This document shows, piece after piece, positions 1-54,033 of a DNA stretch of 64,000 nt. The notes under the pieces were generated by a model. The model was not told where the DNA came from. It searched no databases and was given only the letters and a program-made list of their open reading frames with translations. The translations under genes and the position numbers were made by a program. Position 1 is the stretch's first letter. Every line of letters starts with the position of its first letter. Source of the DNA: Spirochaetota bacterium (GTDB taxonomy: Bacteria > Spirochaetota > UBA4802 > UBA5368); NCBI GenBank assembly GCA_035477215.1, contig DATIKU010000030.1, positions 22,299-86,298 of the forward strand. The letters are read 5' to 3'.

Positions 1-621
<621 letters not shown>

Positions 622-675
622 TTATTTCCATTTAGCCTTTCGCATAATACAAAGGCCGAACTGGATTTTCATTCT

Positions 676-1464
676 TCAATTCATGGATTCGTTGGTCTGC
701 GATCCATTCTGCAAACCACAGCCTTCGCATCCATCCTTCCCCGCACGGCGCTCCGGACGACTCACCCTCACCTTTGCCGCGCGAACTACTGACTCGCCCA
801 TCTTAAAGCCTTTCCGATAGACCCTGGTGATGGTGTCGCGTTCGACTTCCGCGCTCTCATCTATCTCAACCGCCTCATTGAAGGCGGGATCGAACTCCCT
901 GTTGAGTGATTCAATCTCCTCGATTCCATACTTCTTCAACACTTCCTCAACCTGCTTCGAGATCATCGAGATCCCCTCCAGGAAGGAGGCCCGCGCCTCG
1001 GCGACGGTGCAGTTCTCGCTTACCGCGCCCGCGGCCTCAACGGCGCGAAGGAGATCGTCGTTAATGTTGATGATGTCCCGGGACATATCACGTATGGCGA
1101 GGTTCCTGTACTCGTCCTGCGATTTCACCACGCGCTTCTTGTAATTCTCGAAGTCCGCCTGCCGCCTTGTTAATATGTCCTTCAGCGCAGCTATCTCTTC
1201 GTTTTTCTTCACTATCTCCTCATCTTTCTTTCTGATCACTTCGGCCAGATCTTCCGGGCCAAGGCGGATCATTTCGTCTTCCGCGTTTACTGTCCCGGGA
1301 GGGCCTTCCACTCCCTTGAGATGTCCGTTCATTTCGTCTTCGCCGCCCGAACCGCCCTCCTGCGGCCGCGATGCGTCAGCAGCCTGCTGAGTTTCCCGTC
1401 TCTTCCCGTCGGTTTCTCTGGCGTCGTTTTTTGAGTCCCGTATCATCCTCTCTCCTCCCCGCAA
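676..1464 (-). CDS. grpE: Nucleotide exchange factor GrpE
   Basis: 262-aa ORF with the GrpE-type FENYKKRV motif and a coiled-coil N-terminus. It sits between hrcA and dnaK on the same strand. Confidence 0.85.
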   Translation of the reverse strand: MRGGERMIRDSKNDARETDGKRRETQQAADASRPQEGGSGGEDEMNGHLKGVEGPPGTVNAEDEMIRLGPEDLAEVIRKKDEEIVKKNEEIAALKDILTRRQADFENYKKRVVKSQDEYRNLAIRDMSRDIININDDLLRAVEAAGAVSENCTVAEARASFLEGISMISKQVEEVLKKYGIEEIESLNREFDPAFNEAVEIDESAEVERDTITRVYRKGFKMGESVVRAAKVRVSRPERRAGKDGCEGCGLQNGSQTNESMN

Positions 1465-5865: not shown

Positions 5866-6678
5866 GTGAACAGAATGGGAGCCTTCGTAAAAAAACATCT
5901 TAGCATTTTTTCCCTGCTCGTCGCGGCATCATTCGTTCTTGCTACGTTAGACACGGCATCGCCCGGCGAAAAGGCCGGCAATGCCAGACTGCCATCCCTG
6001 CTTAAAAAAGGCTACATCGGCGAGCTGACCTGGTGGGAAGGAAAAAACATCGGGGAATATTCCCGCAACTGGAGCACGTCACACCTTAAAGCGACCGGCA
6101 CAGGCCCCGCAAAGCCTGTCCCGACCGCAGATCAGGACCCCGATGATGTTGAAAGGGAATACTATAGGGATTTGGAAAATTGGGAGTGCATGTACAGCGC
6201 CTGGAGCGCCATGGACGGTAATTACAAAACAGCATGGTGCGAGGGGAAGCAGGACGAGGGGATCGGGGAAATCCTGATCGTAAAGGCGGACACGAGAAAG
6301 CCCGTGCAAATATGGAACGGACTGGGCGCGAGCGACAGCCTGTATAAGGCCAACAACCGTGCCCAGAAAATCCGGGTATGGGCCTTACAGGCCGGAAAGG
6401 CACAAAAGGCGATCGGCCAGTACGATATAGGTATTGCTTACGAAGACATAACCGTGGTGGGCTCCCATGAAATCACCTTGAAGGACCTGAACGGCTGGCA
6501 ACCACTCCCCCTTCCGGCCCGCAGAAGGCCGGCCTTCCAGTCCGTTATCGAAAACGGGCAACCTGCTTTAAAATATGAAGGCAGCACGTTTCTTGCCATT
6601 GAGATTCTGTCCGTGTACAAGGGGACAAAGTATAACTATACCTGTATTTCGGAAATAAACGCAGACAAGGGCAAATAG
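5866..6678 (+). CDS. Secreted protein with F5/8 type C (discoidin-like) carbohydrate-binding-type domain
   Basis: N-terminal signal peptide (KKHLSIFSLLVAASFVLA). AWSAMDGNYKTAWCEG...EILIVKAD resembles the discoidin A-DGN-T-W signature. Confidence 0.45.
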   Translation: MNRMGAFVKKHLSIFSLLVAASFVLATLDTASPGEKAGNARLPSLLKKGYIGELTWWEGKNIGEYSRNWSTSHLKATGTGPAKPVPTADQDPDDVEREYYRDLENWECMYSAWSAMDGNYKTAWCEGKQDEGIGEILIVKADTRKPVQIWNGLGASDSLYKANNRAQKIRVWALQAGKAQKAIGQYDIGIAYEDITVVGSHEITLKDLNGWQPLPLPARRRPAFQSVIENGQPALKYEGSTFLAIEILSVYKGTKYNYTCISEINADKGK

Positions 6679-6839
6679 GGCGGATATTCCATCGGCCCGC
6701 CCCATTGCGACAGGAGACACCGGATACCCGGCGGCGTTATCGGGATTTAATATTTGCTCAGGCGAGCGGTTTGCGTTATCATGATTCCAGTGATGACCAT
6801 CAAACAGCGGACCCATCAGTCCGCGGAGGAAGGGTTGTC

Positions 6840-9206
6840 GTGTACGATGACAGTACGGTAGTCGTCGATTATCGTTCCGCACGGTTCCAGCGGATAAAAA
6901 GCGGGCTTCTTGCCGAGCCCATGCATCTGTGCCCCGAGCGGGCATATCTTATCACCGATTATTTTAAAAAGCACGATTCGCCCGCCGAGGCTATGATAGT
7001 CCGCAAGGCGAAAGCGTTCCGGTACCTCATGCGGTCCAAGTCGGCGATCATCTTCCCCGACGAGCTGATAGCGGGAAACATGGGGACCCGCAGAAAATCC
7101 GCCATAATCCAGCCGGAGCTCTCGGGCGTTATTTCGATGATCACAGACCTCGCTCGCATCGAGAAAAGAAGCACCAACCCCATGCGGATATCCCGGCGCG
7201 ACCGTCTTAAACTATTTACCCGTGTGGTTCCGTACTGGAGCTTCCGCAACCTGGTGTTCCGCGCTTTCTACCCGCGTTTTGGCCGTTTCCTGCGCTACGC
7301 GGCCGAACAGCTCAACGCGACGTATTACCTGATAAACGAGGCCGGTGGCATAGGGCATTTCCTTCCGAACTATGAGCGAATTCTAAAGACAGGTATCAGA
7401 GGATATCTCGAGGAACTCGGGAAAGGCGGAACTGACTTTCATCGCGCGGCGATAATCGCGTGCGATGGGATCGTTGCCTTCGCGGGTAAACTCGCGGCGG
7501 AAGCCGGGCGCCTTGCCGAAACCGAATGCGACGCGGAGCGCCGGGCCGAACTGAAGGAGATCGGGCGTATATGCGCGAAGGTCCCGCTCGAGCCCGCCGG
7601 AACATTCCACGAGGCGCTCCAGTCCCTCTGGCTGGCCCACATGGGCGTCTGCCTCGAAAGCATCAACTCGGCGATTTCATTCGGCAGGATGGACCAGTAT
7701 CTCTATCCCTATTACCGCGACGACCTTGAAGCGGGAAGGATCACCCCGGAGCGTGCGCGCGAACTGCTCCTGTGCTTTTCGGCCAAGACGACGGAACACG
7801 TCTTTCTTCTCTCCGAGCGCACCAGCGAATATCACGGTGGATATCTCGTGGTGCAGGCGGCGATTGTCGGCGGGGTTGATAAAAACGGGAATGACGCGGT
7901 CAACGATCTCACATACCTCTTTCTTGACGTGATGGAGGAATCGGGGCTCCGCGACCCTAATTACCAGGCGCGCATCCATCCGAAAGCCCCCGAGCGCTAC
8001 GTCCGACGAACCATGGACGTGGCAAGAAAGGGAAACGGCGTTCCGGCCCTCTTTAACGATGAAGCGTCGATATCGGCGCTGCTGCGCCATGGTTATCCGC
8101 TGAATGAAGCGCGTAATTACGGCGTGGTCGGCTGCGTGGAGCTGGCCCTTCCGGGAAAGAGTTTCTTTTCAACCGATGCCGCGCTTTTCAATCTGCCGGT
8201 TTGCCTCGAGCTCGCGCTCAACCGTGGAAGGCGTCTGCGCGGAGGCGCCCGCGTCGGCGCGAAGACGCCGGCCCCTGAAAGCCTCGCCGGTATCGAAGAC
8301 GTAATCGGCGCGTTCCGGTTACAGGTGTCCCATATGGTTGAACGGTTTATCACCGATATTCAGGTCATCGAACGCGGCAACCGCGATCATCACCCCACCC
8401 CGTTTTCTTCAATGCTGGTTGACGGCTGCATCGAGTCCGGCAGTGACACGACCGCCGGCGGGGCGCTGTATAATTCCAGCGGCATCCAGGGAGTGGGCGT
8501 CGCGGATACCGCGGACTCCCTGGCGGCGCTGGATTACGTCGTATATCGCAAACGCCGCTATGCGCTGACGCAGATTATCCGCGCCATGCGGACAAACTTC
8601 GCTTCGGATCCCGTTATGCGGGCCGAGCTGCTTAACGCGCCCAAATACGGAAACGACCTCGAACTTCCCGACGGGTACGCAGCCATGGTGGTACAGATTT
8701 TTCACACGGCTCTCGCGCAATACCGGAATACCCGCGGCGGCCCGTACGTGCCCGGTTTTTATTCATCGACATCGCACGTGGGGTTCGGACGTCGTACCGG
8801 CGCGCTGCCCGGGGGCCGGCCGGCCGGAGCGCCTTTTGCCGCAAGCCTCGATCCGGCCCATGGGCGGGACCGCCTCGGCCCCACCGCACTGCTCAATTCC
8901 GCATCGAAGGTCGATTCCGACCTCGCGCCAAACGGGTACGCCCTCAATCTGCGCTTCGATCCCAATACCGTCGCCGGGGACAGGGGATTGAGCCTTCTTA
9001 CGGCCCTGATGAAGGGATTCTTCATTTCCGGGGGGATGGAGATGCAATTCAATATACTGGACCCCGAAACACTGGAGGAAGCCCGTCGCAATCCCGGCTC
9101 CCACCCTGGGCTGGTGGTGCGGGTGGCGGGATATTGCGCATATTTTGACGATTTGCCCGACTCGGCGAAGGGCGAGATCATCGCACGAACACGGCTTGTA
9201 TTATAA
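6840..9206 (+). CDS. Glycyl radical enzyme of the glycerol dehydratase / choline TMA-lyase (CutC) / HypD class; substrate unknown. The ORF is open from 6705 but the likely start is GTG at 6840, preceded by GGAGGA.
   Basis: C-terminal glycyl-radical motif VVRVAGYCAYFDDL...IIARTRLVL. Catalytic GCVE loop (YGVVGCVELALPGK) rather than the PFL CC. Also SFGRMDQYLYPYY, SGIQGVGVADTADSL and NAPKYGND. Collinear by eye with B12-independent glycerol dehydratase. Confidence 0.9.
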   Translation: MYDDSTVVVDYRSARFQRIKSGLLAEPMHLCPERAYLITDYFKKHDSPAEAMIVRKAKAFRYLMRSKSAIIFPDELIAGNMGTRRKSAIIQPELSGVISMITDLARIEKRSTNPMRISRRDRLKLFTRVVPYWSFRNLVFRAFYPRFGRFLRYAAEQLNATYYLINEAGGIGHFLPNYERILKTGIRGYLEELGKGGTDFHRAAIIACDGIVAFAGKLAAEAGRLAETECDAERRAELKEIGRICAKVPLEPAGTFHEALQSLWLAHMGVCLESINSAISFGRMDQYLYPYYRDDLEAGRITPERARELLLCFSAKTTEHVFLLSERTSEYHGGYLVVQAAIVGGVDKNGNDAVNDLTYLFLDVMEESGLRDPNYQARIHPKAPERYVRRTMDVARKGNGVPALFNDEASISALLRHGYPLNEARNYGVVGCVELALPGKSFFSTDAALFNLPVCLELALNRGRRLRGGARVGAKTPAPESLAGIEDVIGAFRLQVSHMVERFITDIQVIERGNRDHHPTPFSSMLVDGCIESGSDTTAGGALYNSSGIQGVGVADTADSLAALDYVVYRKRRYALTQIIRAMRTNFASDPVMRAELLNAPKYGNDLELPDGYAAMVVQIFHTALAQYRNTRGGPYVPGFYSSTSHVGFGRRTGALPGGRPAGAPFAASLDPAHGRDRLGPTALLNSASKVDSDLAPNGYALNLRFDPNTVAGDRGLSLLTALMKGFFISGGMEMQFNILDPETLEEARRNPGSHPGLVVRVAGYCAYFDDLPDSAKGEIIARTRLVL

Positions 9207-9435: not shown

Positions 9436-10227
9436 TCACATCAGCCCCCTGTACGCCCCGCCGTCGATGAGGATGGTCTCGCCGGTGATATACCCCGCCC
9501 TCTCTGACGAAAGGAACGCGACAAGCGCGCCGAATTCCTCCGGGGAGCCGATGCGCCCCGCCGGGATTCCCGCCGTGATCTCGCGCTCGGCCGCGTCATA
9601 CGCCATCCCATCCTTCAAACTTTTATTTTTTATAAGGCTTTCGACCCGGTCGGTCATGATATAGCCGGGCGCGACGGTGTTGCAGGTTATATTGAAAGGG
9701 GCGAGTTCGCCCGCCAGCGTCTTCATAAAGGCCACCACGCCCACGCGCGCCACGTTTGAAAGCGCGAGGTTCGGAACGGGCTGTTTCACCGTGATGGATG
9801 TGGAGGCGATGATACGGCCCCACTCCTGTAGCCTGATGGCCGGAAGGAAGGCATGCACCAGGCCGATCACGCTGAGCAGGTTGAGGCCTATGGCCTTTTC
9901 AAAATCGGCCGGGGCGAAATCCGCTATAGTCCCCGGCGGCGGGCCGCCTGCGTTGGCGAAGAGTATATGCACCGCACCGAAACGCTCCCGCACCTCCGCG
10001 GCGAAAGCAGCGATTCGGGCCCGGTCCTCGACGTCGCAGGGGGCGGAAAAGGTCTCGACCCCGTATTTTTTGCGCAGTTCATCGGCGGTTGCACCGACGG
10101 CTTCGGCGTTTCGGGAGCAGAGCGCGAGCTTCGCGCCTTCGGCCGCCAGCGCCCCGGCCACGGCGCGGCCGAGCCCCCTGCTCGATGCCGTTACGACCGC
10201 CACTTTGCCCTTCAGTCCAAGGTCCAT
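9436..10227 (-). CDS. SDR family oxidoreductase
   Basis: KGKVAVVTASSRGLGRAVAGALAAEGAKLALCSRN Rossmann motif, 263 aa. Confidence 0.8.
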   Translation of the reverse strand: MDLGLKGKVAVVTASSRGLGRAVAGALAAEGAKLALCSRNAEAVGATADELRKKYGVETFSAPCDVEDRARIAAFAAEVRERFGAVHILFANAGGPPPGTIADFAPADFEKAIGLNLLSVIGLVHAFLPAIRLQEWGRIIASTSITVKQPVPNLALSNVARVGVVAFMKTLAGELAPFNITCNTVAPGYIMTDRVESLIKNKSLKDGMAYDAAEREITAGIPAGRIGSPEEFGALVAFLSSERAGYITGETILIDGGAYRGLM

Positions 10228-10293: not shown

Positions 10294-12744
10294 CTATTCA
10301 ATCTCCTCGAGACCGCTGTCCGTCCTGCGAAACTGTCGCAGGCGCGTAAGTCGTATTCGATGAAGCCCTTCCATTGGCATCTCCGCGAGCGCCATGACGG
10401 CCCTGTCGATACGAAGCGAATGCTCGTCGCCCGCCGGAAGAACCAGTGTTACGTTTGCGCCGTCGATACGGGCATCGAGGATCGCCTCGCCGAACTCGAT
10501 CGTCGAGTGGCCCTTCTTGGTCTCCTTTTGAAAGGGGATGCGCGCTTCGATACCGCGTTTCATCGTTTCAACAATTTCCGTATCGTCAGTTTCGACCGAA
10601 TACTCCATGGCGCGGGTTATGGCCATCAGCGATTCCTTTGTTGCGATAAGGCGGGCCGACTCGACTCGTACCCCCCGGGGGAGGCGGTCGTTCATCCTTC
10701 CCGGTAATTCCACGATATCAACATCATCATACAGATCGACGTCAAGCATCTCGCAGGCGCTTTCGATGCCGAGCGGCAGGGGATAGCCCGCCGCGATGCG
10801 CTCCCGCTTGTTGAATCCCTGCGAGAAGGAAACGGGAATTCCGGCCATGCGCAGAGAGCGCTTTACGATCTCGATAAAATCGATGTGCGGAATGTAGCGT
10901 GCGAAACCGTTCTTTGACAGGCGAAGCCGCACCCGCAGCACAACCGCGTATTTCCGTTCGAACGCGTCGACCGAACGGTCATCGACGGTCAGGACGCCCG
11001 CGGGGCGCGGGAATTTTTTCTTTAATACCGACGTATCCGCGGGCGCCTTGCGCTGGAGCCCAACGAGACGCTCGAAGCCCGTTTCGACCGCGCTCCACGG
11101 AAAGACCTCGTCTTCGCGGCGAGAATCCAACAGGGACCTCCATCCCGGTAAATCCTCGTTCAGCCGTTTCTCCCATGTCCCGTAATTGAAATGCTCGCTC
11201 CACGAATCGAGCCGCGCGCCGTCGCGGTATGCACCGAGTATGACCGTAGCGAGGCGCTCATCGCCGCGGGCGAGCACACCTTCCAGGACCGACGATTCAA
11301 CATTATGGTTCTTTATCGTTACCGATCGCGGCACTCCCCGCTTGAGGCGACGGACGATATCGTAAAAATACGCCGCGTCCATCTGTCGCGCCCACTGAAA
11401 AGGAGTCAGCGGCTTGGGCACGAAGGGCGAGACGGTGACATTGATCTCCTTTTTGCCTTTCGAGAGCGATGCGATCCTTTTAAGCAGGGCGATCATCGCC
11501 TCGGCCTCGTCGACACTTTCGCAGCCTGGGAGCCCTATCATGAAATAGAGCTTCAGCGTCCGCCAGCCGCGCTCGAATACGTGCGCCACGATCGAAAGCA
11601 GATCGTCGGTGGATATCCTCTTGTTGGCCAAAGCGCGTATCTCCTCCGAGGCCGACTCGACGGCGAAGGTAAGCGAGGCTTTTCTCAGCGAGGAGATTCT
11701 CTCGATTATCGGGAGGGTGCCCATGTCCACGCGAAGCGACGGAAGCGAGATCGAGACTCCGCGCTCATTGAGGCGCGGAAGGATGTCGTTTAAGAGCTCG
11801 GCCAGGTGCCGGTAATCGCCGATGGAAAGCGACGCGAGGGTAAGCTCGTCGTATCCGGAGTTTTCGAGCACCGTCGTGATGCCGTCGGAAAGAAGTTGCG
11901 GCGAATACTCCCTACAGGGGAGGTCGTAATAGCCCGCATGGCAGAAGCGGCACATGTTCGAACAGCCCCGGCTGACCTCGACGATCGCCCTGTCCTGGGC
12001 CACGCGAATGTTCGGAACGATGGGCCGCAGCGGAAAGTGCGGCACCGGCGCCCGGTACGACCGTTTTCGAACGAGCTTCCCCTCGATCGCGGCAAGTCTG
12101 CCGTCTTTGCGGACGACGCGATGCAGCGACGGGACGTACACGCCCTCGATTTCTTCGAGTAGCGCGAGCTTTTCGTTTCGGCGGAGGTTTCGCCTTTTTG
12201 CCGCCAGCAGGCATTCGGCGATCTCCACTATGCCCTCCTCGCCGTCGCCCAGGAAAAATGCGTCGACGAAATCCCCCATCGGCGCCGGGTTGCAGGACGC
12301 CTCGCCCCCGGCAATCACGAGCGGCTGCGAACCGTCCCGTTCGCGTGCCATAAACGGAATCCCACCGAGATCCAGGACTTGAAGAACATTCGTATAAAGA
12401 AGATCGTGCGACAGATTAAATGCGAGCATATCGAGCTCGCCAAGCGGGGTGCGGCTTTCGAGCGTGAAAAGCGGAAGGCCGAGTTCGCGCAGGCGCTTTT
12501 CAAAGCCCGTATCGACCGAAAAGACTCGTTCGCATGCCACGCCCTCGATCGAATTGGCGATATCGTACAGTATGCGTATCCCGTGGTTCGACATCCCTAC
12601 CTCGTAGAGGTCGGGATAGCAGACGGCCATCCGGAGGTCCGCGCCGGATTTTATCACCTGGTTGTATTCGCCGCCGGTATATCGGGCTGGCTTCTGCACC
12701 GCGGCGACGAGTTCGGTTATGACTGAATCCTTAATTGCCGGCAC
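10294..12744 (-). CDS. Large radical SAM protein: B12-binding-like N-domain, radical SAM core and C-terminal DUF2344-like domain (TIGR03960/TIGR03936-type fusion)
   Basis: CSNMCRFCHAGY CxxxCxxC cluster motif. 816 aa. Overlaps the ksgA stop by 14 nt, so probably an operon. Confidence 0.75.
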   Translation of the reverse strand: MPAIKDSVITELVAAVQKPARYTGGEYNQVIKSGADLRMAVCYPDLYEVGMSNHGIRILYDIANSIEGVACERVFSVDTGFEKRLRELGLPLFTLESRTPLGELDMLAFNLSHDLLYTNVLQVLDLGGIPFMARERDGSQPLVIAGGEASCNPAPMGDFVDAFFLGDGEEGIVEIAECLLAAKRRNLRRNEKLALLEEIEGVYVPSLHRVVRKDGRLAAIEGKLVRKRSYRAPVPHFPLRPIVPNIRVAQDRAIVEVSRGCSNMCRFCHAGYYDLPCREYSPQLLSDGITTVLENSGYDELTLASLSIGDYRHLAELLNDILPRLNERGVSISLPSLRVDMGTLPIIERISSLRKASLTFAVESASEEIRALANKRISTDDLLSIVAHVFERGWRTLKLYFMIGLPGCESVDEAEAMIALLKRIASLSKGKKEINVTVSPFVPKPLTPFQWARQMDAAYFYDIVRRLKRGVPRSVTIKNHNVESSVLEGVLARGDERLATVILGAYRDGARLDSWSEHFNYGTWEKRLNEDLPGWRSLLDSRREDEVFPWSAVETGFERLVGLQRKAPADTSVLKKKFPRPAGVLTVDDRSVDAFERKYAVVLRVRLRLSKNGFARYIPHIDFIEIVKRSLRMAGIPVSFSQGFNKRERIAAGYPLPLGIESACEMLDVDLYDDVDIVELPGRMNDRLPRGVRVESARLIATKESLMAITRAMEYSVETDDTEIVETMKRGIEARIPFQKETKKGHSTIEFGEAILDARIDGANVTLVLPAGDEHSLRIDRAVMALAEMPMEGLHRIRLTRLRQFRRTDSGLEEIE

Positions 12745-21408: not shown

Positions 21409-23136
21409 TCAGTCTCCCGCGTATTGTCCCGCCGCGCGGAGTTTAGCCTTTTCTTCCTCTTCAAGCGTATTGAACGCGATCTTGCCCACAAGTGTCTTGG
21501 GAAGATCGTTGCGGAACTCGACCTCGCGCGGACAGCTCCACTTGAGCAGGTGCTCGGCGCAGTGGTTGATGAGTTCGTTCGCGAGCTCTGTTGAGGCCCT
21601 GGACTTGTCTTTCAGCACGATAAACGCTTTAACGCGCGAAATCTGCGCTTTGTCGGGGACACCGATGACGCATGCCATGTCCACCGCCGGGTGCTGGCGC
21701 AGAATATCCTCCACCTGGCCAGGATAGACGTTGACACCTGAAGATTTTATCATGCGCTTGATACGCTGTTTGAAGTACATGAAGCCGTCCTCGTCCATGT
21801 TCGCCATGTCGCCGGTGTGCAGCCACACCCGGCCGTCGGAATGCTTTTTCAAAACGCTCGCCGTTTCCTCGGGCTGGTCGAGATACCCCAGCATCACCGC
21901 CGGGCCGTACAGGCATATCTCGCCCTCCTCTCCCGGGGCGCATTCCTCGTCGGTACCCATCTTTACGATCTTCGCGTCCATGTCAGGGAACGGCACCCCG
22001 ATGCTTCCCTCGCGGTACTCGTTTATGGGCATGGCCCCGATCGCCGTAACGGCCTCGGTGAGGCCGTATCCCTCCAGGAGCTTCACGTTGCCGCCCTGCC
22101 GGCTGACTATCGCTTCGAATTCTTCTTTCACGACTCGGGGCAGCGTGTCCGCGCCGCTGAAACAGCCCTTGAGACATGAAAGGTCGGTCTTTTTGAATTT
22201 CTCGTTATTGGAAAGGGCCATGAAGAGCGTCGGCACGCCCACCACGAAGGATGGACGCTTGGATTTAATCAGTTTCGCGACCTCCTCCGGAGTGAAGGTG
22301 GGGACGAGGATGCTCTTGCCGCCGCCCATAAACGCCGCGTTCACGCAGACGCCCAGGCCGAAACCGTGGAAGATGGGCATAATCGCGAGTATCGAGCTGG
22401 TACGGTCCAGCCCGCCCCAATGCGCGACCATAAGGCCTTCGCTTATGAAGTTATAGTTGGAAAGCATGATCCCCTTGGGAACGCCGGTGGTCCCGCCGCT
22501 GTAAAGAACGACCGCCATCTCGTCCGGGCCCATTTCGGCCGGTTGTACCGACGGGTACGAGCCGTTCATCATTTCGTTCCACCATATCACGCGATCGTCC
22601 TTGGGCACCTTGGGAATCTTGCGCCCCTTGGTGAGGTTGAAGCCGATCTTCTTGACCAGGCCCAGGTAGTCGGGAATGCGCGCGAGGATGAGCTTCTTGC
22701 AGTCTGTCTTGTGCATGATCTGGTTGAAGTTGCCGTAGAACGCGTCGATGGTGAGCGCCATGACGCTCTTGCTTATATTGAGGTAAAATTCGATCTCCTT
22801 CGGCGGCGAGAGAGGATGAATCATGCTCGCCACGGCCCCGAGCTTGTTCACACCATAGAAGCAGATGATACCCTGCGGGCTGGTGGGCATCGAGATCGTG
22901 ACGCGGTCTCCCTTTTTAAGCCCCATTGCCGCGAGCGCGTCCGCGCACCTGTCGATCTCCTCGGCGAAACGCCGGTAGGTCGACGTGTATCCCAGAAAAT
23001 CGTAGGCTATCGTATCGGGGTATTTGTCCGCGGTGTCCATCACCGCCCGGTACATGCTTACCCTCGGATAATCGATCGATTCGGGAACATTGCCATAGAA
23101 CTTGAGCCACGGTTTCTTCTCGTACATGGTGAGCAC
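21409..23136 (-). CDS. AMP-dependent synthetase/ligase (acyl-CoA ligase, FadD-like)
   Basis: LYSGGTTGVPKG AMP-binding motif, LEGYGLTE, 575 aa. Confidence 0.85.
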   Translation of the reverse strand: MLTMYEKKPWLKFYGNVPESIDYPRVSMYRAVMDTADKYPDTIAYDFLGYTSTYRRFAEEIDRCADALAAMGLKKGDRVTISMPTSPQGIICFYGVNKLGAVASMIHPLSPPKEIEFYLNISKSVMALTIDAFYGNFNQIMHKTDCKKLILARIPDYLGLVKKIGFNLTKGRKIPKVPKDDRVIWWNEMMNGSYPSVQPAEMGPDEMAVVLYSGGTTGVPKGIMLSNYNFISEGLMVAHWGGLDRTSSILAIMPIFHGFGLGVCVNAAFMGGGKSILVPTFTPEEVAKLIKSKRPSFVVGVPTLFMALSNNEKFKKTDLSCLKGCFSGADTLPRVVKEEFEAIVSRQGGNVKLLEGYGLTEAVTAIGAMPINEYREGSIGVPFPDMDAKIVKMGTDEECAPGEEGEICLYGPAVMLGYLDQPEETASVLKKHSDGRVWLHTGDMANMDEDGFMYFKQRIKRMIKSSGVNVYPGQVEDILRQHPAVDMACVIGVPDKAQISRVKAFIVLKDKSRASTELANELINHCAEHLLKWSCPREVEFRNDLPKTLVGKIAFNTLEEEEKAKLRAAGQYAGD

Positions 23137-23188
23137 TCCTTTTATTGAATGGTTATGGCGCGTCCTGACGGTCGCGTCGATCGGTTGT

Positions 23189-24436
23189 TCATCCCTTTTT
23201 CTGTTTGATGATCTCCATGAACGCGTCGATGCGGGTTTCGATCTGGCTTTCGCTCCAGGCGCGTTCGTCGACCATGTCGGCCTCGATCATAAGACTGGGC
23301 AGGCCCGTATCGCGCTGCAGGGATTTCATGATGTCGTACTGGCCCAGCGAGTACGGCTTGCAGCTGCGGTTTGAATGCATAACGATCCCGTCCACGTCGT
23401 ACTTTTTGATCATTTTCTTGATGATCTTGAGCATCTCGTCCACGCCGATATTGAGATAGATACGCGTGTAGCCTTCGACCATGGAGCCGAGGAAATCGTT
23501 CTCGTCGAGGTATTCGAGCGAGCCGCACCACGCGGAGGTGTAGGTATCGGCGACCAGGCACGCGTCGTACGAGGCGAACTTATCGGAGAGCCACTTGGTC
23601 TTGAACCATACCGGCAGGTTGTCCCACAGCAGGCGGTAGCGTTCGTTCGGGACGGCGCCGATCTTTTGCGCCGCGCGCTCCTTCATCTCTTCGAGCAGCA
23701 TCGTATAGTAGTCCACCGCCGTCTGCGTCCCCCGGAGCGTCACGATGAGGGCAAGGTGGAAAAACGCGTCGAAGGCCGACATGGGCGCCGGTTTGTTCAT
23801 TGTAGTGTCAAGCACGTCCTGCCAGAGGCGCTGGCCCTGCAGGGAAAGCCTGCCGACCTCCTTCATTTTATCCATATCGAACTTTTTACCGCATACCACC
23901 TCGAGGAATTTTATATACTCATCGATCTGGCTGCGGACGTACTTCCTTGCTTCGCTCGAAAACTCGGTGTGGCAGAACGGCGTGTCGAAGATGAAAAGCG
24001 GCACCTTGTAGTAGCGGGCCTGCACCTCGTACCATTTGAGCACCGTGCCGCAGATGTTGTTGCAGCACACCAGGAAATCCGGGGCGGGGAGCCCCCCTAT
24101 GGGACCGCCGTTTACCGTGGAGGCCGCGATGTCCGAGCGGGCGTACGAACAGATGTCGCGGCAATATCCCATGTCCTCGGCCTTCTCGCAGAGGTCCACT
24201 CCCATCTTGGAAGCGCCGATCATGGCACCGTGGTTTTCCGGGTAGACCGGTATTGCGTCCATAACGATGAGTGGCTCTACGGGACCGCCGCTGGTGATCC
24301 AGGCGACCTTCTTTCCGTTCTGCGCGGCGGTTTTTGCGTCTATATAGTACGCGGTCATTATCTCCTTCATTTTCTTGATGGATTTGACCTTCATCTTTTC
24401 CTTCTCGGGGTCCTTCTTTAAATGTTCTTCAGACAT
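23189..24436 (-). CDS. 2-hydroxyacyl-CoA dehydratase / BcrBC-BadDE family component (HgdA/HgdB-like). ORF open to 24535; likely start MSEEHLKKD at 24436 with a GGAGA RBS.
   Basis: Cys-rich HgdAB-family regions (YCRDICSYARSD, FLVCCNNICGT). Adjacent to a paralogous component. Confidence 0.7.
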   Translation of the reverse strand: MSEEHLKKDPEKEKMKVKSIKKMKEIMTAYYIDAKTAAQNGKKVAWITSGGPVEPLIVMDAIPVYPENHGAMIGASKMGVDLCEKAEDMGYCRDICSYARSDIAASTVNGGPIGGLPAPDFLVCCNNICGTVLKWYEVQARYYKVPLFIFDTPFCHTEFSSEARKYVRSQIDEYIKFLEVVCGKKFDMDKMKEVGRLSLQGQRLWQDVLDTTMNKPAPMSAFDAFFHLALIVTLRGTQTAVDYYTMLLEEMKERAAQKIGAVPNERYRLLWDNLPVWFKTKWLSDKFASYDACLVADTYTSAWCGSLEYLDENDFLGSMVEGYTRIYLNIGVDEMLKIIKKMIKKYDVDGIVMHSNRSCKPYSLGQYDIMKSLQRDTGLPSLMIEADMVDERAWSESQIETRIDAFMEIIKQKKG

Positions 24437-24506
24437 GATTTTTCTCCTCGATTGATATCGAACGACATCCGGCCAGCCGCCGCCCGGAAGCGGCTTATGA
24501 TTTTGC

Positions 24507-25628
24507 CTAACGCAGCATCTCGATAAAGGCCTCAAAGCGCGTCGAGAGCTGTCCCTCAGAAGGAAGGTCCTGCTCGATCTCCATCAGCATGCTCGGGACG
24601 CCCTCCCGGTCCAGCATCTCCTTCATGTACGGATAGTCGAAGGAGTGCGGATCGCAGAATTTCAACAGCAAAAAGATGACGCCCGACGCGCGGTGCTCCT
24701 TCGCGATGCCCACTATACCGTCGCCCCTGGCCGTGATGGACGAATGCTTCGCCGGGCACACGACGCGTTCGGTAAACCGGTCCGCGAGCGCTTCGATGGG
24801 ATCGCCGCCCTCGGACACCAGGCCCTCAAAATAGCGCGACCCTGTGCAAAGGTCGTCCCAGACCACCGCGCCGCCCGATTTTTCGATTATCGAATAGATG
24901 TCGGCATGGTCGCAGAGCCCGCCGCTTAAAACGATACGCTTCCCTGAATCGGCCCCCGCGGCCTTCGTTTTTTCCAGTTGGTCAGCAACGGCCGTAAGCT
25001 TTTCCGCGGCGTCCGCCCGGTCCATGATCATTGCACTCTTTACGAGCGCGTAGACGTCCGCTCCCGCTATCAGCCCGGGATTCGCGCTTCGCAGACGGTA
25101 TATTTTCCCGAGCGCGCGCTTTATCGTGTTGAAGGTTTTGATCGACTTTGAGAGCTGCGCGTCGGTAATACTGAGGCCAAGGTCCATTTCGAGCTCGCGT
25201 TTGAACTTGCGCAATACATCCCCCATGTATTGCCTCGCGCTCGACGTATCAAGCTTCACCGGCAGCACCACGTCGGAATGAAAACTGAACTTCAGATTGA
25301 GACGCCAGATGTCCGAGAGTCGCTGGATTGAATCGCAGGTATGGGGGAACACCGCACCGTCGAGGAACTCGAGTCTTCCCGCAAGGGCCTCCTCGAGTAC
25401 GCCGCGCACCAGCGAACAACTGTATGCCTGCAAATGGGCGTCCGCGTGGGCGATGGCCGAGCGGGTCCCGAAAAGCCTGAGTGGATGAATCCCCGCGGCG
25501 TGAATGATCTCCTCGGGCGTATATGAGCAGAAGTATCCGAGGATCTTTTTCCCCGAGTCGTTTTTAAGACGCCGTGCGTATCCGTCGCTGTCGTTGATTA
25601 CGTCGTGAAATTGCCGGATCGTATTCAT
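24507..25628 (-). CDS. 2-hydroxyacyl-CoA dehydratase family component (HgdB/HgdA-like), first gene of the operon
   Basis: ILGYFCSYTPEEIIHAAGIHPLRLFG N-terminal HgdAB-family signature. 373 aa. Confidence 0.7.
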   Translation of the reverse strand: MNTIRQFHDVINDSDGYARRLKNDSGKKILGYFCSYTPEEIIHAAGIHPLRLFGTRSAIAHADAHLQAYSCSLVRGVLEEALAGRLEFLDGAVFPHTCDSIQRLSDIWRLNLKFSFHSDVVLPVKLDTSSARQYMGDVLRKFKRELEMDLGLSITDAQLSKSIKTFNTIKRALGKIYRLRSANPGLIAGADVYALVKSAMIMDRADAAEKLTAVADQLEKTKAAGADSGKRIVLSGGLCDHADIYSIIEKSGGAVVWDDLCTGSRYFEGLVSEGGDPIEALADRFTERVVCPAKHSSITARGDGIVGIAKEHRASGVIFLLLKFCDPHSFDYPYMKEMLDREGVPSMLMEIEQDLPSEGQLSTRFEAFIEMLR

Positions 25629-25840: not shown

Positions 25841-26611
25841 ATGACGTTAAAGCAAAGAAGGCTCATTCAATCCATCAAGAGGGCCTCGGACATACTCGGC
25901 ATTTTTATCCAGGAGAAGCGTACAATGGGTATTACGGATTTCGCCCACCGCCTCGCGCTGCCTAAAACCACCATCTCGAGCATCGTCCGGACCCTGGAGG
26001 CGCTGAAGTTCCTTGAAAAGGACCACATCACCTCCAAATACCGCCTTGGCCCCGCGCTTTTCCAACTGGGGATGAAATACGCCACCAACATGGACCTGGT
26101 CATCATCGCGCGGGCTTGGATGGAACGGTTGTGCTTTCAGTTCATGGAGCCGGTGAACGTCGGCATGCTGGTCGGAGACAAGGTGATCGTGGTGCTCAGG
26201 GTCGAACCTGAAAACCGATTTATGGTCTTTCCGCAGGCCGGCTCGGTAATACCCGTCCATACCACCTGCATCGGGAAGCTTCTCCACGCCCATCTGTCTC
26301 CAGACGAGCGAGGCGCCCTCCTCAAGAATTACTCCTTCGAGAAGCTTACGGCGAATACAATCGATGATCGCGAGCGCTTTATTGCGGAGCTTGACCGGGT
26401 GAAACACGAAGGTGTCGCGTTCGACAACGAGGAGTCGATAGTGGGACTGGCGGGCATCGGCGGGCCGATTTTCAATTACACAGGACAGGCCGTGGCCGCT
26501 TTTGTCATCACCGGCAAAGCGGAAAATATCCGGAAAAATCGCGAAAAGATGATAACCGCCGTACGCTATACGACCGGCCAGGTTTCGGCACAGTTGGGAT
26601 ATTCGCCTTAA
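25841..26611 (+). CDS. IclR family transcriptional regulator
   Basis: N-terminal HTH (SIKRASDILGIF...ITDFAHRLALPKTTISSIVRTLEA) and C-terminal IclR effector-domain-like region. 256 aa. Confidence 0.8.
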   Translation: MTLKQRRLIQSIKRASDILGIFIQEKRTMGITDFAHRLALPKTTISSIVRTLEALKFLEKDHITSKYRLGPALFQLGMKYATNMDLVIIARAWMERLCFQFMEPVNVGMLVGDKVIVVLRVEPENRFMVFPQAGSVIPVHTTCIGKLLHAHLSPDERGALLKNYSFEKLTANTIDDRERFIAELDRVKHEGVAFDNEESIVGLAGIGGPIFNYTGQAVAAFVITGKAENIRKNREKMITAVRYTTGQVSAQLGYSP

Positions 26612-53719: not shown

Positions 53720-53791
<72 letters not shown>

Positions 53792-53797
53792 GTTGTT

Positions 53798-53879
53798 TGC
53801 GAGCGAAGGGACTTGAACCCCCACACCTTACGGTACCAGATCCTAAGTCTGGCGCGTCTGCCAGTTCCGCCACGCTCGC
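53798..53879 (-). tRNA. tRNA-Leu (anticodon TAG), long variable arm
   Basis: Reverse complement GCGAGCGTGGCGGAACTGGCAGACGCGCCAGACTTAGGATCTGG... Acceptor GCGAGCG/CGCTCGC pairs perfectly; anticodon loop is CT-TAG-GA. Confidence 0.85.
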
Positions 53880-53960
53880 CCTCCAGTCAAATATCGGCGC
53901 AAGGGTGTTATTTTCAACAACTTTTCTCCGTGCGCCCGGCCTGCCCGGGGAGAGGCGGAT

Positions 53961-54033
53961 TGGGTTGCCCGAGAATCGAACTCGGAACCTACTGATTAAG
54001 AGTCAGGTGCTCTGCCAGTTGAGCTAGCAACCC
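53961..54033 (-). tRNA. tRNA-Lys (anticodon CTT)
   Basis: Reverse complement GGGTTGCTAGCTCAACTGGCAGAGCACCTGACTCTTAATCAGTAGGTTCCGAGTTCGATTCTCGGGCAACCCA. Anticodon loop is CT-CTT-AA. Confidence 0.85.

Follow-up and report, generated by a model that had tools for sequence, protein, structure and literature searches.

A 64,000-nucleotide stretch of a Spirochaetota genome (contig DATIKU010000030.1 of GCA_035477215.1; hereafter, the window) encodes, at 6840..9206 on the plus strand, a glycyl-radical enzyme (GRE; 788 aa, HSV96502.1) from an uncharacterized clade within the eliminase/isomerase class, whose catalytic Cys and Glu form a Cys-X-Glu (CXE) motif. We consider it fairly probable that this GRE is functional, that its substrate is larger than glycerol, and that it is activated by the activating enzyme (AE, or activase) of a distant operon encoding a GntR-type regulator, a second GRE (GRE3), the AE and a PNPOx-like protein, the genes next to it in the window being bystanders. 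The puzzle of a GRE without an activase then largely dissolves into that of a GRE eliminase and a canonical AE which are normally encoded apart. No class of radical enzymes is growing faster than the GRE eliminases, and whole clades of them have yet to be assigned a function (PMC13450708).

An intact GRE of the CXE class

The open reading frame (ORF) is real and intact and encodes a GRE of the dehydratase/lyase class. It begins with GTG, the start also assigned to the identical protein in public records, and a Shine-Dalgarno-like GGAGGA (6825..6830, plus strand) can be read from the sequence 9 nt 5′ of it; Rfam and promoter/terminator scans around the gene gave no signal over background. The protein matches Pfam PF02901 (PFL-like; 575 bits) and PF01228 (Gly_radical; 90 bits). 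Its Gly loop, RVAGY (residues 761-765; 9120..9134, plus strand), contains Gly764 (9129-9131) as the radical site, and its Cys loop, GCVE, contains the thiyl-radical Cys432 and the catalytic Glu434 of CXE (8133..8141, plus strand). Both motifs had been named in a first-pass annotation of this DNA and are borne out by the translation and the Pfam scores. All GRE eliminases and isomerases retain CXE (2026 review; PMC13450708), and the window GRE is predicted to form a glycyl radical and to be a functional enzyme of the 1,2-eliminase/isomerase class.

A discrete and widespread clade without a characterized member

None of the NCBIfam equivalogs claims the window GRE. It comes closest to TIGR01774 (PFL2/glycerol dehydratase subfamily), with 619.3 bits for a cutoff of 678.2, and a clade representative (P0443) scored practically the same (620.7 bits). 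For the HypD, CutC, HpsG, HpfG, PflD-type and pyruvate formate-lyase (PFL) equivalogs, it stayed under half of the respective cutoff: 487.8 of 1100 bits for HypD (NF043068), 477.6 of 1050 for CutC (TIGR04394), 473.7 and 454.3 of 1000 for NF048011 and NF048009, which represent the sulfonate lyases and dehydratases (IslA, IseG, HpsG, HpfG), and 143 of 994 for PFL (TIGR01255), from which it also differs by the single Cys of GCVE in place of two adjacent ones. Among structures in the PDB, the best match was AfPFL2 from Archaeoglobus fulgidus (2F3O; 494 bits), along with glycerol dehydratase (GD; 472 bits), 1,2-propanediol dehydratase (PD; 453 bits) and full-length CutC from K. pneumoniae (9F3W), whose 493 bits are a sum over three aligned stretches, the catalytic domain accounting for 417 (other CutC structures reached 408-419). 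With CutC, HypD, IslA, IseG, HpsG and HpfG it shares the CXE class and similar scores (333-493 bits).

The clade to which the window GRE belongs is a discrete, widespread and strongly constrained GRE family in which no member has been characterized. Among 1.84 billion representatives at 50% identity, a single full-length one stands for the whole family (63% identity, 1112 bits); those that come next lie outside the clade, are only 48, 43 and 45% identical (740-700 bits), and likewise belong to no named equivalog. More than 120 clusters at 65-89% identity to the window GRE were found among ∼5.8 billion proteins, and 184 stretches of a collection with one genome per species contain a confirmed relative; the clade is now cleanly delimited. 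The 80 loci that were retrieved all stem from metagenome-assembled genomes (MAGs), of Syntrophales/Smithella, Desulfobacteraceae, Desulfosalsimonadaceae and Dehalococcoidia/Chloroflexota, and also of Spirochaetota/Leptospirales, Bacteriovoracaceae and Geothermincola. Across 21 clade members from different phyla, mean column identity was 76%. Literature searches yielded no description of the clade, of orphan GREs, or of an operon combining GRE, PNPOx and GntR; a paper on a limonene GRE concerns an unrelated X-succinate synthase.

Some MAGs encode two paralogous clade GREs (loci L061 and L068 in Zod_Metabat.965; L023 and L071 in Grevelingen_8MPa_metabat2.60). In Spirochaetes ADurb.BinA120, both the clade GRE (OPZ39728.1) and its GRE3 (OPZ37226.1) are annotated as "Benzylsuccinate synthase alpha subunit", which is almost certainly a mis-annotation in either case; labels of this kind could inflate counts of hydrocarbon-degradation genes.

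The active site suggests C-O cleavage in a probably bulkier substrate

Residues of the window GRE were mapped by HMMER alignment onto GD (whose native numbering is used here), PD, CutC and AfPFL2. The catalytic residues of GD are retained: C433 and E435 correspond to C432 and E434, D447 to D446 (8175..8177, plus strand), Y640 to Y641, and H164, the general acid for the hydroxyl leaving group, to H173 (7356..7358, plus strand; motif GIGHFLPNY), at which position CutC has its choline-binding Asp. In contrast, three other positions of the substrate pocket carry smaller residues, H281 and S282 being replaced by S277 and A278, and Y339 (Phe in PD) by V338. In an alignment of 21 clade sequences (65-82% identity), H173, C432, E434, D446, Y641 and G764 were invariant, and the replacements at S277, A278 and V338 were fixed. 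Across the clade, the Gly loop reads RV[AS]GYCAYF. An exact match to the active site of a characterized enzyme, raised by the first-pass annotation as a sign of known function, was therefore not found: of the GD/PD pocket set (H164, H281, S282, Y339/F, D447, Y640), only His, Asp and Tyr are kept, and the equivalog scores lie below their cutoffs.

The mechanism of GD provides the frame in which these residues can be read: Glu435 deprotonates the C1 hydroxyl, and His164 protonates the leaving C2 hydroxyl (PMC13450708). With C. butyricum GD (1R8W/1R9D) and PD (5I2A), the window GRE shares fold, length, RVAGY, CXE, and the His, Asp and Tyr residues, which together catalyze C-O elimination from a vicinal diol. 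Because His, Glu and Asp are kept, the alignment suggests C-O cleavage, by a dehydratase or by isomerase-type opening of a ring or ether. The three smaller pocket residues, in turn, indicate that the substrate is probably bulkier than glycerol or propanediol, such as a larger vicinal diol or hydroxy compound. AfPFL2 has the same His, Ala278, Asp and Tyr positions and GCVE, but this archaeal protein is a distant relative and carries Gln and Asn where the clade has S277 and V338. The sulfonate-binding Arg/Gln/Arg triad of IslA, IseG and HpsG (PMC13450708) has no counterpart in the window GRE, as far as can be read from the aligned segments GIGHFLPNY and PGFYSSTSHVGFG, in which neither Arg nor Gln occurs at the triad positions (IslA and HpsG being outside the alignment). 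A further position, which we take to be that of D278 in HypD (likewise outside the alignment), is Ala in the window GRE.

An activase is rarely encoded next to clade members

The first-pass annotation had claimed that no activase is encoded near the GRE, and in fact none was detected anywhere in the 64 kb. Among ORFs of at least 100 aa, the radical S-adenosylmethionine (SAM) motif CxxxCxxC occurs in a single one (10294-12744, minus strand), a gene of the TIGR03960 type that is discussed below, and a hidden Markov model (HMM) of GRE activases, searched with --max against the six-frame translation of the window, gave a best E-value of 0.9. The same holds for most relatives. When the ORFs called in 86 non-redundant loci with a clade GRE were searched with the activase HMM, an AE was present in 6 of them; where the DNA extends at least 5 kb to either side of the GRE, which is the case for 43 loci, the count is 3. 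Being without a linked AE is, because of these low counts, typical of the family and not an effect of the window or the assembly. The suspicion that related genomes might have an activase adjacent to the GRE is thus only partly dispelled: the two are unlinked in most loci, but they share an operon in one subclade. Every AE linked to clade members is of the TIGR02494 type. One further candidate, a 352-aa ORF directly 3′ of the GRE in locus L039 with weak similarity to AEs, was dismissed since it encodes only a ferredoxin-domain protein.

An operon with a second GRE supplies a candidate partner

The subclade in question links the clade GRE to a defined set of genes. In loci L075 (1090-8938), L092 and L093 (1971-9530), the order is GntR, GRE3, AE, PNPOx-like, and, last, the clade GRE. 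Loci L061 and L068 have AE, PNPOx-like and clade GRE in the same order, and their contigs end before the position of GRE3 and GntR. The regulator is of the GntR/FadR type. GRE3 is itself a CXE-class GRE of 837-838 aa, ∼30% identical to the clade GRE, with the Cys loop VGCLEN and the Gly loop R[VI]TGYNAYF; its best PDB match is HypD (305 bits), and its copy in L075 matched no NCBIfam equivalog. The PNPOx-like protein (280-286 aa), encoded between AE and clade GRE, has no sequence relative in the PDB; that it might donate electrons to the AE is speculation. Each complete two-GRE operon contains a single AE, so that in at least one lineage two GREs must share their AE.

The set also exists without the clade GRE, namely, in the Spirochaetes MAG loci L094-L099 (L094:6639-11950 and L098:9225-14523, for example). 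The AE of L094 carries CGLSCAWC and two CxxCxxCxxxC motifs, that is, CxxxCxxC plus two of the ferredoxin type. The set is widespread: with the PNPOx-like gene as anchor, a scan of metagenomes confirmed 155 stretches that match, and 80 loci from among them were retained (L100-L179). In these, GRE3, AE and PNPOx were almost always together, and the clade GRE lay directly 3′ of PNPOx in 11 loci (7 of the ∼45 that extend at least 2.5 kb downstream). In a neighbor-joining tree, the clade GREs located within the operon form one monophyletic subclade, all other subclades being orphan. The system of GRE3, AE, PNPOx and, in part, clade GRE is the modestly novel element here, as no description of it was found in the searchable literature. 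The clade GRE of L092 (11930-14292; NCBI MAG contig) is broken into ORFs of 533 and 254 aa, whereas the same locus in a Logan assembly (L093:7167-9530) has it intact, with 787 aa; the split reflects a frameshift error or else a pseudogene.

The genome of the window is likely to have this set as well. The nearest genome that could be read, that of Spirochaetes ADurb.BinA120 (GCA_002069125.1), encodes an orphan clade GRE in the same synteny on MVZN01000001.1 (locus L010; 87% identity) and, on MVZN01000033.1 (L098), GntR-GRE3-AE-PNPOx, with an AE of 364 aa that has radical-SAM and ferredoxin domains. The representative of the GRE3 cluster at 90% identity, HSV98192.1 ("MAG TPA Spirochaetota bacterium"), belongs to the same accession series as the window proteins (HSV96501-96543), and it is 89% identical to the ADurb.BinA120 GRE3, in line with the 87% between the orphan GREs. 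The locus tag VLM75_06135 places the window GRE at about gene 1228 of its genome, and the 90% clusters of enolase and ClpX each contain one HSV accession, so that nothing suggests that the series includes another MAG from this species group. Accession series are paired in a like manner in HPO45407/HPO46712 and MGV7928281/MGV7931241. Thus, the activase of the window GRE is most likely encoded elsewhere in the genome, next to a second GRE. The implication of the first-pass annotation that an activase is truly missing does not hold up, given that the AE gene lies one gene upstream of the GRE in one subclade and on another contig in the nearest genome.

A shared activase would not be without precedent. 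The E. coli PFL paralogs PflB and TdcE share PflA, so that there, too, a GRE is encoded apart from its activase (PMC13450708). However, PflB and TdcE are close paralogs with identical Gly loops, whereas the clade GRE and GRE3 are only ∼30% identical, with Gly loops that are merely similar (RV[AS]GYCAYF vs R[VI]TGYNAYF); they differ from PflB/TdcE also in sharing an operon with a PNPOx-like protein in one lineage. Similarity of the Gly loop is associated with cross-reactivity of AEs, for which activation of TdcE by PFL-AE has been cited (PMC13450708).

Proposed reaction and its implications

By analogy with characterized GREs, a TIGR02494-type AE, most likely the GRE3-linked one, would install the radical on Gly764 in trans, so that a single AE, encoded on another contig of the same genome, would serve two GREs. 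As in GD, the radical would pass to Cys432, Glu434 would deprotonate a hydroxyl of the substrate, and an adjacent leaving group would depart, for which the retained His173 makes another hydroxyl or an ether oxygen the likeliest candidate; the product radical would finally recover a hydrogen atom from Cys432.

Several observations weigh against this interpretation. The linkage of the clade GRE to the operon counts as a single evolutionary event, since it is confined to one subclade. Cross-reactivity of AEs has been documented only between GREs with near-identical Gly loops (PMC13450708). The AE next to HSV98192.1 in the genome of the window is inferred, not seen, the sequence read being the 64 kb. 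The shape of the pocket was deduced from an alignment and not from a structure, and no conserved neighbor across the related loci hints at the substrate. Moreover, where an AE lies near a clade GRE outside the operon, it appears to have another partner: in the Chloroflexota-type loci L004 and L012, it belongs to a second, non-CXE GRE (GRE2; Cys loop NNCMVPT), and in L026, an AE of the GRE2 type is found 6 kb away, the relatives of which usually adjoin GRE2. The partner AE of the clade may therefore differ between lineages. The AE type of L004, L012 and L026 was also considered as the cognate partner and rejected as not specific to the clade, its relatives being normally located by GRE2.

GRE2 represents an uncharacterized family in its own right (798-803 aa; L004:13836-17196, L012:13796-17159, L089:7577-10930, L090:7593-10960), without the CXE Glu, with the Gly loop RVAGFAAYF, and with its own AE. 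Its recurring neighbors encode NMO, enoyl-CoA hydratase, acyl-CoA dehydrogenase, a 499-aa FAD oxidoreductase with Fer2 reductase, and DUF1302/DUF1329 proteins; the cluster looks like a catabolic one for a hydrophobic or CoA-ester substrate.

Beyond the single gene, it is conceivable, although we regard this only as a tentative proposal, that clade GRE and GRE3 constitute an undescribed pathway of anaerobes in sediments and digesters, with a shared activase and a dedicated PNPOx-like flavoprotein; the clade GRE would perform an elimination on a substrate new to GREs and would, in most lineages, have become physically unlinked from its activase. If true, this would be the first large GRE family routinely activated in trans. 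Because the activase is usually encoded elsewhere, methods based on genome neighborhood would miss the partner of the clade GRE. With a partner set now named, which comprises the GRE3-linked AE and the PNPOx-like protein, the family becomes accessible to experiments. Absence of an adjacent activase is, by itself, weak evidence for an unusual system.

Alternative explanations and the role of the neighboring genes

One alternative, that the window GRE is a B12-independent glycerol or 1,2-propanediol dehydratase in an unusual context, is unlikely. Both GD and PD rank high among the PDB matches, and H164, E435, D447 and Y640 of GD are all conserved; however, overall identity to GD is only ∼35-40%, the TIGR01774 cutoff is not reached, and S277, A278 and V338, fixed in the clade, take the place of H281, S282 and Y339/F344. 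In addition, and again unlike the GD/PD systems, the GRE has no adjacent AE, and the 64-kb window contains no genes for 1,3-propanediol dehydrogenase, for aldehyde dehydrogenase or other aldehyde-processing enzymes, or for a microcompartment. A hydrocarbon-activating enzyme similar to X-succinate synthases is very improbable. It would agree with the annotation of the ADurb.BinA120 homolog, with the top PDB match AfPFL2, which has been proposed to be an alkylsuccinate synthase although its function is debated (PMC13450708), and with the frequent occurrence of the clade in Smithella, Syntrophales and Desulfobacteraceae. Yet the window GRE keeps the CXE Glu, a marker of eliminases and isomerases; it scored only 207-211 bits against benzylsuccinate synthase and MasD (4PKC and 9O8U), compared with 333-494 bits against eliminases and isomerases; and no conserved small ORF that could encode an accessory subunit flanks the GRE across the loci. 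A relic gene, either decaying or radical-independent, with no further need of an activase would account for the lack of an AE within 64 kb, but a relic is hardly to be expected with an intact ORF, invariant catalytic residues, high column identity across phyla, and relatives confirmed in so many genomes, and we regard this explanation as highly improbable.

Two alternatives assign a role to genes next to the GRE. Upstream, on the same strand and separated by a 162-bp gap, lies a gene for a secreted NADase_transloc/F5-8 type C (discoidin-like) protein (5875..6678, plus strand; 267 aa, HSV96501.1, VLM75_06135), which starts with ATG at 5875. That such a gene is present had been claimed before and is substantiated by matches to PF25302 (68 bits) and NF047619 ("NADase-type glycan-binding domain"; 85 bits) and by the N-terminus, MGAFVKKHLSIFSLLVAASFVLA, which on inspection, no predictor being used, resembles a Sec signal. 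The accompanying suggestion that this protein captures a glycan or polyol and feeds the substrate to the GRE has, in our view, little to recommend it. In its favor, L002, L010 and L021 retain the pair, and in L002 and L010 the GRE gene is followed by one for an MFS transporter. But the window lacks that MFS gene, and a discoidin-like homolog adjoins the GRE only in these three loci and the window itself (L001), all from Spirochaetota with GREs at least 81% identical, with syntenic genes around the pair in L002 and L010, which are the two loci with long flanks; it is absent from L003 (82% identity), from L020 (Leptospirales; 69%), and from all other loci. The discoidin-like protein is thus probably outside the enzyme system. 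The downstream radical-SAM protein (10294..12744, minus strand; HSV96504.1), a fusion of TIGR03960 (539 bits; cutoff, 462) and TIGR03936 (DUF2344), is an even less credible participant, and its role as a non-canonical activase can practically be dismissed. It is the only radical-SAM protein encoded in the window, 1.1 kb from the GRE, and is kept in the two closest syntenic loci; however, it is encoded on the other strand, where its gene forms a run with rsmA, it has no match to the activase HMM, and clade-linked AEs are always of the TIGR02494 type. The first-pass annotation, which had described it as unrelated to activases and located beyond a short-chain dehydrogenase/reductase (SDR) gene, was correct on the evidence of the profile matches and the null result with the activase HMM, and the co-occurrence of TIGR03960 and GRE that it suggested checking is limited to 3 of 89 loci (the window, L002 and L010), all from related Spirochaetota with the same gene order. 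Both neighbors reflect lineage-specific synteny and are probably unrelated bystanders; activation by the AE of the distant GRE3 operon is the interpretation we prefer.

Other neighbors and further features of the window

The SDR oxidoreductase gene between GRE and TIGR03960 gene (9436..10227, minus strand; HSV96503.1) is mentioned for context only. SDR genes occur within 10 kb of a clade GRE in 15 related loci and are adjacent to it in one. All-versus-all clustering of the neighbors in the related loci revealed no universal partner gene; the most common neighbors were SDR (15 loci), AMP-binding (13) and HdrD-like proteins (∼6), whose recurrence is explicable by lineage synteny or by the commonness of such genes. 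An HdrD/GlpC-like Fe-S protein (two Fer4 and CCG; ∼460 aa) adjoins the clade GRE in several loci of Desulfobacterota (L068:4223-5617, L075:8988-10364; also L025, L032, L038 and L084). In a subclade from Chloroflexota (L035, L046, L051, L054, L060, L062, L063, L069, L077 and L081), the GRE is tightly flanked on both sides, upstream by a gene for a DUF4389 protein of ∼206 aa (median gap, 29 bp) and downstream by one for a carboxymuconolactone-decarboxylase/AhpD-family protein of ∼110 aa (median gap, 41 bp).

Elsewhere the window carries the genes of an ordinary chromosome, among them dnaK/grpE/hrcA and those for glutamine synthetase III, PFOR, enolase, Lon, ClpX and trigger factor. An ORF at 109-792 (plus strand) matches Pfam PF10712 (NAD-GH) and is antisense to the dnaK/grpE region according to the gene calls in the syntenic locus L002; PF10712 is a known shadow-ORF artifact, and we take this ORF not to be a gene. 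At 21409-25628 (minus strand), the gene for an AMP-binding CoA ligase precedes those for two subunits of the HGD-D family (2-hydroxyacyl-CoA dehydratase/benzoyl-CoA-reductase type), beside which an IclR regulator is encoded (25841-26611); an ATP-dependent activator (HgdC/BcrAD-type) for the pair was not seen among the window ORFs scanned. A cluster of three tRNA genes is located at 53720-54033 (minus strand).

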